Shown here piece by piece: positions 54,004-54,915 of a stretch of DNA of 64,000 bases (positions are counted from its first letter, which is position 1; every line of letters begins with the position of its first letter). Below the pieces are notes generated by a model that saw nothing but the letters and a program-made list of their open reading frames with translations, did no database searches and had not been told where the DNA came from. Source of the DNA: Saccostrea echinata (taxonomy: Eukaryota); the NCBI RefSeq assembly GCF_033153115.1, contig NW_026889792.1:2542001-2606000 (forward strand), written 5' to 3'. The position numbers and the translations under genes were made by a program.

Positions 54004-54915
54004 ATGCAAACCTGGAGAAAAGGATTTTACCGCTCCTCCCCAACATCTTTCCAGCGCCATTGTCTTTCGCGTCCTTGGATCACACCAGGACCAGCACGAA
54101 TTTTCTCGACACCGGGATCCAGTCCACGGTGCTATAGGTGCGGGAAAACTTTCTTCCACGGCCACCTTTTCACGTGTCAAGCTACACGTTCCGAGTGTTT
54201 CGTGTGCGGAAAACTTGGTCACCATGCGAAAGTATGTTTCTCTTCTGCAACCACACCTTACCGTTCCTCCCAAAGGAATACATTTCCAATGGCGTCCATC
54301 GATCATTCAACGATCAAAAAGGATCAAGCCAAGGGGTCAGGACGGGCCTGCTTGAAGACAAACCCGGGAAACCCGTCTGTAGGATCGCCTGACAAAAAGT
54401 CGTCAAAATGCGATTCTACTGCAGGTATGTGTATTTCTCGGACTGCTTCCAAAAAAAGTCCGAAGAGTGTTGCTGTTGCGGAGACGCAAAGGAAGAGTGT
54501 ACTTTATCTGCAGACTAAGTCCGTAAGCAAAAGGCGCAGGGATTCAAAAAGAATAAAGGACTATTACGACAGATTGCAGTTAGTGAAATCTTTACCATTC
54601 CAAGACCTAAGTTCCGAAGATATTCGTAATTTATTTAAATCAACAGGCCATACCATCCAACTAACTGCATTACAGAATAAAAATAAGACCTTAAAGACAA
54701 AAATTAGTGAACTAATACGGAAATGTGACAATCTTCAGACCGTAACATCCACTCTTCATAAACAAATTTCAAAGTTACAGAACAGACCAAACGAACGAAG
54801 ACCATACGACTCAACTAGACGTGTCGACAAACAACACCCTTTCCTCCCGCTACCAACACCAACCAAGCGTTACTGGTACCAACAACCTAGTGTTCCACAT
54901 GCCAGTCCCCGGTGA
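54004..54915 (+). CDS. LTR-element ORF, 303 aa: Gag-type double zinc knuckle, basic region, coiled coil
   Basis: CYRCGKTFFHGHLFTC-QATRSE-CFVCGKLGHHAKVC; heptad-like LTALQNKNKTLKTKISELIRKCDNLQTVTSTLHKQISKLQ; the intact ORF fills most of the space between PBS and PPT. Confidence 0.8.
   Translation: MQTWRKGFYRSSPTSFQRHCLSRPWITPGPARIFSTPGSSPRCYRCGKTFFHGHLFTCQATRSECFVCGKLGHHAKVCFSSATTPYRSSQRNTFPMASIDHSTIKKDQAKGSGRACLKTNPGNPSVGSPDKKSSKCDSTAGMCISRTASKKSPKSVAVAETQRKSVLYLQTKSVSKRRRDSKRIKDYYDRLQLVKSLPFQDLSSEDIRNLFKSTGHTIQLTALQNKNKTLKTKISELIRKCDNLQTVTSTLHKQISKLQNRPNERRPYDSTRRVDKQHPFLPLPTPTKRYWYQQPSVPHASPR

Follow-up and report, generated by a model that had tools for sequence, protein, structure and literature searches.

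A young non-autonomous Ty3/Gypsy-type LTR element of Saccostrea echinata encodes a capsid-less protein that is under purifying selection and may serve as an adaptor to helper particles

Within a stretch of 64,000 nucleotides of the Saccostrea echinata genome (contig NW_026889792.1, positions 2,542,001 to 2,606,000; hereafter the window), an LTR element of only 1,939 bp carries a sole long open reading frame (ORF; 54004..54915, forward strand, ATG to TGA) that encodes a protein of 303 amino acids. This mini element is young, and its ORF is under purifying selection with a moderate dN/dS. It has no capsid, polymerase or integrase gene and cannot replicate alone. We propose that its protein is an adaptor, in which zinc knuckles hold the element's own RNA, a predicted coil multimerises the protein and a conserved module docks on a protein of a helper Gypsy element. 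We put the probability of this reading at roughly 0.45, that is, somewhat short of an even chance.

The element is delimited by two LTRs of 427 bp with TATCAC...GTGATA ends (53447..53873 and 54959..55385, forward strand), which are 100% identical, and by the target-site duplication (TSD) AAAC (53443..53446 and 55386..55389). A primer-binding site (PBS) of bulged form (53877..53898, forward strand) starts 3 bases past the end of the 5′ LTR, and a polypurine tract (PPT) with a 3-nt spacer (54945..54958, forward strand) precedes the 3′ LTR. The preliminary description had taken this to be a genuine mini LTR element, and the identical LTRs, AAAC flanks, PBS and PPT bear it out. Paired LTRs with inverted tips (TA..TA rather than TG..CA), TSD, PBS and PPT are together those of a non-autonomous LTR retrotransposon, while the termini, the TSD length and the PBS, which are common to the mini element and autonomous PR-RT-RH-IN elements, point to its dependence on Ty3/Gypsy. 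It encodes no reverse transcriptase (RT) or integrase, yet it is present as scattered copies that each have their own TSD. The host DNA at the insertion is the left arm of a foldback/MITE-like DNA element with ~23-bp repeats, segments of which occupy 53405-53446, 55386-55650 and 56480-56735 of the window. The far arm of this foldback element has AAAC once only, which confirms the target duplication. The mini element is situated between two host exons that are oriented away from each other, namely: an RIIa-domain exon (48491-48856, reverse strand), which has IQ-like repeats (32.7-44 kb) downstream of it, and an exon of the BTG family (57716-58060, forward strand).

The genome contains at least 13 full-span copies at ≥92% identity, the window's copy included, and three more at 73-85%; the own-genome search scored 40 of 66 candidates, so that all copy counts are lower bounds. 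Solo LTRs are common. A 4-bp TSD is present at 19 of 21 places (11 two-LTR copies and 10 solo LTRs, two with common flanks), and the two LTRs differ by 0-2 mismatches in nine of the ten other copies measured. The preliminary description had held that ORF disruption in most copies, or a dN/dS near 1, would count against its proposal. Neither is the case: the ORF is intact in nine of the 13 young copies (frameshifts in three, a stop in one) and broken in all three old ones, and dN/dS is 0.49 (p=4e-4) among the nine intact copies and 0.73 (p=0.002) with all 16 included. Furthermore, 11 of 12 young copies are free of stops, against an expectation of 0.41-0.57 per copy at 1.5-2.5% divergence, the copies not being independent. 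These ratios were obtained using our own codon model with transition bias, with the FastTree tree held fixed and partial copies left out; raw Nei-Gojobori ratios (0.33-0.82) ignore transition bias and are not relied on. Four control frames give 1.06-1.25, and the antisense in-register frame gives 0.78 (p=0.018), a value below 1 that is to be expected of a frame mirroring a coding one. Across all 16 copies, selection is concentrated in residues 166-215 (0.42, p=7e-4) and the coil (0.60, p=0.04); the knuckles are not significant (0.78, p=0.53), and residues 1-40, the linker and the tail do not differ from 1. Taken together, copy number, dN/dS and the cross-species conservation described below establish that the ORF is more than a product of chance.

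The double zinc knuckle lies close to the N-terminus (residues 43-78; 54130..54237, forward strand). The ATG is 130 nt from the 5′ LTR and 42 residues stand ahead of the first knuckle, so that no capsid fits before it. No capsid family matches the 303-aa protein in Pfam at E≤1, while the autonomous Gags of the same genome, a positive control for the capsid search, match Retrotrans_gag and have their knuckle downstream of the capsid. The first knuckle is non-canonical (C43-x2-C46-x7-H54-x3-C58), and the second is a canonical CCHC (C65-C78; Pfam zf-CCHC, E=0.0011, 19.4 bits against a cut-off of 20.8). A Ser/Lys-rich linker, KRRRDSKRIKDY (residues 176-187), a heptad helix and a terminal Pro-rich tail follow. 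Just before the predicted coiled coil (residues 216-259; 54649..54780, forward strand; Leu at most d positions) lies the core motif (residues 172-212; 54517..54639, forward strand), an unnamed module of basic helix, LPF turn and short helix that includes R179, D180, R183, P198 and F199. The N-terminal knuckles with no room for a capsid, the succession of segments after them and the capsid-then-knuckle order of Gypsy Gags had all been described from the letters alone, and each is upheld here.

The AlphaFold2 model, built on a 115-sequence alignment (mean pLDDT 69, pTM 0.37), agrees with this layout and predicts helices at residues 174-196, 204-212 and 216-259. Its confident part consists of the knuckles (pLDDT >90 at residues 41-80) and these three helices, the remaining protein being of low confidence (<50 over most of 86-148). 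The knuckles appear nucleocapsid-type by motif and by predicted fold; the Foldseek rows for them are NC/Lin28, at weak scores (E≥0.6). No Pfam or PDB match was found for the motif, the best hit of its profile in a PDB sequence search being at E=1.2. Foldseek against PDB and viral structures returned nothing at E≤0.001, the VIA-align structure search gave generic coils only (best Z 5.7, none at Z≥8), and the best ESM Atlas scores (0.83 and 0.81) are leads at chance level. This lack of structure matches does not establish a new fold. A homodimer prediction for residues 165-264, in which the alignment was unused, scored 0.19 against a mark of 0.32 and speaks neither for nor against a dimer.

The motif is present in seven mini-LTR families of the genome, including that of the window; the six others were reached through weak protein-search matches and a PBS search (50 exact matches). 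Each of the seven has a copy with the motif between paired LTRs, and the interiors measure 0.85-1.26 kb in six families and 2.6 kb in a decayed seventh. The sister-family proteins are only 22-28% identical to the 303-aa protein. One sister family has a dN/dS of 0.35 (knuckles 0.16, motif 0.25, coil 0.29), and two others have 0.38 and 0.43; divergence in family 4 is too low for this ratio. At one locus (L049:5435-7976), six tandem LTR copies with 2 bases between each stand ahead of a single interior.

Beyond this genome, a motif profile of eight sequences matches 172 clusters at E≤0.001 among 1.84 billion representatives. The 150 listed homologues have a median length of 257 residues, with just two longer than 400. 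In 81 of these 150 the knuckles stand ahead of the motif, in three they come after the coil, and they are absent in 37 and in a further 29 that look 5′-truncated; they are thus modular, being N-terminal, C-terminal or missing. P0104, P0108 and P0143 have a permuted architecture, with motif and coil first and several C-terminal knuckles. In 115 sequences R179 and P198 are invariant and D180, R183 and F199 nearly so, a pattern that is partly circular given retrieval by the motif. By these comparisons, it is the module 172-212 with the coil, not the knuckles, that forms the conserved core defining the family. No capsid family is present among 25 of the 77 Pfam families for the 115 members, nor in a further 30 proteins. 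Names are attached to seven of the 20 clusters consulted, and the six with a visible species are all from bivalves (Tegillarca, four from Mytilus, and Argopecten). None of 12 gag/pol-bearing loci of the S. echinata genome contains the motif. Among 83 and 45 pattern matches in metagenome and viral contigs, none was confirmed as the locus of a homologue. In three public gene models (P0016, P0045 and P0047) the motif is fused to Sushi, integrase-like or tetraspanin sequence; these are probably annotation chimeras arising from insertions.

Conservation extends to the RNA leader. Past the PBS, the leader is conserved across several mini families and one ORF-less family, and it contains a hairpin (53909..53935, forward strand) whose 10 pairs are 97.9% paired in 14 sequences, with double changes in five pairs, compared to 31-57% paired in slid controls. 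RNAalifold recovers this hairpin unprompted. Since these 14 sequences are related to one another and a single divergent family supplies most of the double changes, the support is good without being independent many times over; families 4, 5 and 7, which are without a clear match, were left out of the alignment. The hairpin is a candidate packaging or dimerisation signal, and we count it in favour of the adaptor that its compensatory changes hold across families whose proteins are ~25% identical. A long-range pairing with the PBS was also considered; it has no double changes and is not claimed. The ORF-less family, represented by L080 (also L005:407 and L009:3316), has ~750-bp near-identical LTRs and a ~310-bp interior, and has the leader hairpin and a TATCACAG start in common with the mini elements, which suggests that the hairpin is mobilisable without a protein in cis. 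L005 and L035-L037 are chimeras that carry the LTR of the window's family.

The PBS itself, presumably complementary to tRNA-Ala, occurs in two forms. The window copy is bulged, while other copies have a perfect 18-nt tRNA-complementary site; within the family the bulged form is found at 12 of 17 places and the perfect one at five, scattered on the tree, and families 2 and 3 likewise have both states. ARAGORN finds no tRNA gene at 30 PBS loci. PMC7472051 ties reversion between PBS forms to retrovirus-style copying of the tRNA and describes strict PBS inheritance in Ty1/Ty3. On that account, the mixed forms suggest that the helper's RT may be retrovirus-like and that the bulge may be kept by selection.

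Several autonomous Gypsy families of the genome use the same PBS and 4-bp TSD as the mini element. None has the mini LTR itself: 14 of 15 exact matches to LTR end plus PBS are mini copies, and one is rearranged. LTR tips, PPT and PBS are the sites read by integrase and RT. At these sites the mini element agrees with an envelope-bearing Gypsy family found at two loci (L118/119 and L120/121), namely at 15 of the 17 bases that open the LTR, at the 8 that close it and at the end of the PPT, along with a TAA-bearing PBS. This family encodes Retrotrans_gag, RT, RNase H, integrase and an env ORF that matches Baculo_F (E=1.6e-16), and one of its copies has identical 552-bp LTRs. The LTR bodies are no more alike than shuffled sequences (score 51; shuffles mean 41, maximum 64), and tblastn of the mini protein against the candidate helper gives no match at E≤1. 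Since the LTR bodies are unrelated and other autonomous families have the PBS and TSD in common, the helper is not pinned down; the L118-L121 family is the best candidate among those covered by a non-exhaustive, sequence-based survey. A second gag-pol element and env-less Gypsy families with the same PBS were also observed (L114; L098-L101, L109, L110, L127; L108). The second gag-pol element has a third long env-like ORF with no Pfam match at E≤0.01, and one env-less family carries a chromodomain.

Five sequencing runs contain at least half of the sampled words, the RNA nature of all five being only guessed. The whole ORF lies on a single contig in two of four such runs, at depths of 16.5 and 655, the latter compared to 5-18 in a sister run. 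This contrast fits regulated transcription of some copy, the contigs showing neither level nor strand. One run contains both mini and candidate-helper contigs, with a 2.6-kb contig over the helper env. The candidate helper is covered in only two of 30 bins in the run where mini depth is highest, and none of four runs covers the unique flank 53124-53355; in neither case does the lack of contigs prove anything. At L120, one contig from a related copy passes directly from the beginning of gag to that of env, with the 5,319 bases between them missing; it represents either a spliced env transcript or a copy with an internal deletion.

By established LTR biology, the mini element would be transcribed from its 5′ LTR, primed by a tRNA at the PBS, and reverse transcribed and integrated by a helper's Pol. 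In the proposed adaptor mechanism, the knuckles would grip the element's own RNA, the predicted coiled coil would multimerise the protein, and the module at residues 172-212 would dock on a helper Gypsy protein, most likely of the envelope-bearing L118-L121 family, whereby the small RNA would gain a place in helper particles. That the gene of a parasite with many copies is under selection suggests an advantage for whichever copy makes the protein, consistent with action on its own RNA. A purely diffusible benefit would be open to broken copies as well, so the protein probably favours its own RNA. The preliminary description had envisaged an adaptor that binds its own RNA and oligomerises to hijack or interfere with helper particles. 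Its proposal survives in part: the protein is capsid-less and selected, the element is helper-dependent and a helper candidate with matching ends exists, while the core proves to be the 172-212 motif and the coil. Pure interference on behalf of the host is disfavoured, since the copies that carry the gene are young and continue to spread. At least 37 of the 150 homologues have no knuckles, and those of the window's family are not significantly selected, so that RNA binding by knuckles is not essential to the class. The modularity of the knuckles and the existence of an ORF-less relative make the RNA-grip part of the adaptor mechanism less secure and leave room for the rival readings considered next, the first of them a regulatory role.

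In such a role, which we consider unlikely, the protein would control expression of its own element as a Rev-type RNA export factor or a bZIP/bHLH-type LTR transactivator, with no direct contact with helper particles. Invariant Arg residues on a basic helix, then a turn, a short helix and Leu-rich heptads, an NLS-like KRRR, and retention of the module in knuckle-less homologues are all consistent with it, as is a weak match of two of the 115 members to Pfam bZIP_1 (best E=0.0028), the 303-aa protein itself having no bZIP or bHLH-ZIP match in the Pfam search. However, HLH is not among the 25 Pfam families considered for the 115 members, the structure searches yield only the generic coils noted above, the hydrophobic register is unlike that of bHLH, and the knuckles are of nucleocapsid type.

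It is improbable that the protein replaces the capsid, coating its own RNA as a coiled-coil RNP (like LINE-1 ORF1p) and recruiting helper Pol only. The coil plus nucleic-acid-binding parts would suit such a coat, and the module-coil-knuckles order of three homologues is Gag-like, as if the module had replaced a capsid. LTR reverse transcription, with two strand transfers and maturation by protease, is not known to proceed outside a capsid, which argues against this reading, as does an AlphaFold2 model without a folded lattice-forming domain. Similarly, we see little likelihood that the protein counters silencing, disabling a small-RNA or chromatin factor of the host to the benefit of the element and its helpers alike. 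A short surface motif that stays invariant from one bivalve order to another would suit a conserved host target, and bulged PBSs in three families suggest small-RNA pressure (PMC7472051); however, a benefit in trans would also reach broken copies, which would weaken selection.

A host-serving restriction factor, that is, a dominant-negative Gag fragment that poisons helper assembly, is very improbable: the protein is capsid-less and its knuckles could compete for helper RNA, but the gene, instead of occupying a single fixed locus, is carried by scattered young copies that replicate and have identical LTRs, and solo LTRs are numerous. Finally, a dead remnant of a deleted gag, which the broken copies (4 of 13 young, 3 of 3 old) and the near-neutral half of the protein in the window's family might suggest, is hardly credible and already largely refuted by dN/dS below 1 in four families, the scarcity of stops in young copies (not independent of one another), the residues invariant over 115 sequences at ~25% identity (partly circular) and the failure of tblastn to match the protein to the candidate helper at E≤1.

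If the docking role of the adaptor holds, these elements might form a protein-armed class of satellites of animal retrovirus-like elements, a suggestion that we make tentatively. Equally speculative is its extension to an old, bivalve-wide class of hundreds of small LTR families that have lost capsid and enzymes, are satellites of envelope-bearing Gypsy elements and retain a dedicated docking module, hitherto undescribed, which commandeers helper particles. Such satellites may then travel between cells inside helper particles, and L080 and other ORF-less elements would in turn be parasitic on these parasites. The family accounts for many 'CCHC-type/hypothetical' bivalve gene models, some chimeric with host genes, and RT-based surveys miss its mini elements. 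No title or abstract opening describing this class was found in the open-access literature; the element table of PMC13524379 and Repbase/Dfam may include the helper or the mini elements under neutral names.

Among known helper-dependent elements, TRIMs are small, have a PBS, PPT and TSD, encode nothing and have shorter LTRs than the mini element. L080 fits this kind, while the selected 303-aa ORF rules out membership for the mini element. Mouse ETn, whose helper is MusD, uses the helper's primer tRNA and mixes perfect and imperfect PBSs across its tree (PMC7472051); ETn is non-coding and has its LTRs in common with its helper, whereas the mini element matches only in LTR tips and has a selected protein. 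Troyka elements (PMC12440569) have CG..CG ends and a 3-bp TSD, in contrast to the TA..TA ends and 4-bp TSD found here. Plant TR-GAG elements (PMC8704663) are likewise non-autonomous, with two LTRs and one ORF, and are mobilised by a helper, but they encode a full Gag near that of the helper (562 aa in the example), while the ORF of the mini element is without a capsid, has the unnamed module and bears only a weak knuckle likeness to the candidate-helper Gag. BHIKHARI-1/2 of zebrafish and ENS-1/ERNI of chicken are, like the mini element, young non-autonomous animal LTR elements with one coiled-coil ORF (PMC12067270). Their proteins are described there as of retroviral origin and as keeping a capsid domain (617 aa for Bik-1), in contrast to 303 aa, no capsid, knuckles and Gypsy-type ends. 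The mini element thus has the single ORF between LTRs of these gag-only types, but not their capsid domain. Ty3/gypsy elements of molluscs with an F-type envelope, the gag-pol-env 'ancient errantiviruses' of PMC13524379, have the layout of the L118-L121 helper candidate with its Baculo_F match; the main text of that paper does not contain the word 'non-autonomous', and the passages seen describe no satellite.

Helper-dependent LTR elements known so far encode either nothing or a full Gag. A class with a capsid-less protein and its own conserved domain would constitute a third strategy, and would make testable the long-open question of how a non-autonomous retroelement outcompetes helper RNA for packaging. 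The module is small (about 45 residues plus the coil) and easily expressed. Phage satellites and satellite viruses are likewise small parasites that keep a gene to exploit their helper, and the mini element would resemble them by functional analogy rather than by homology.
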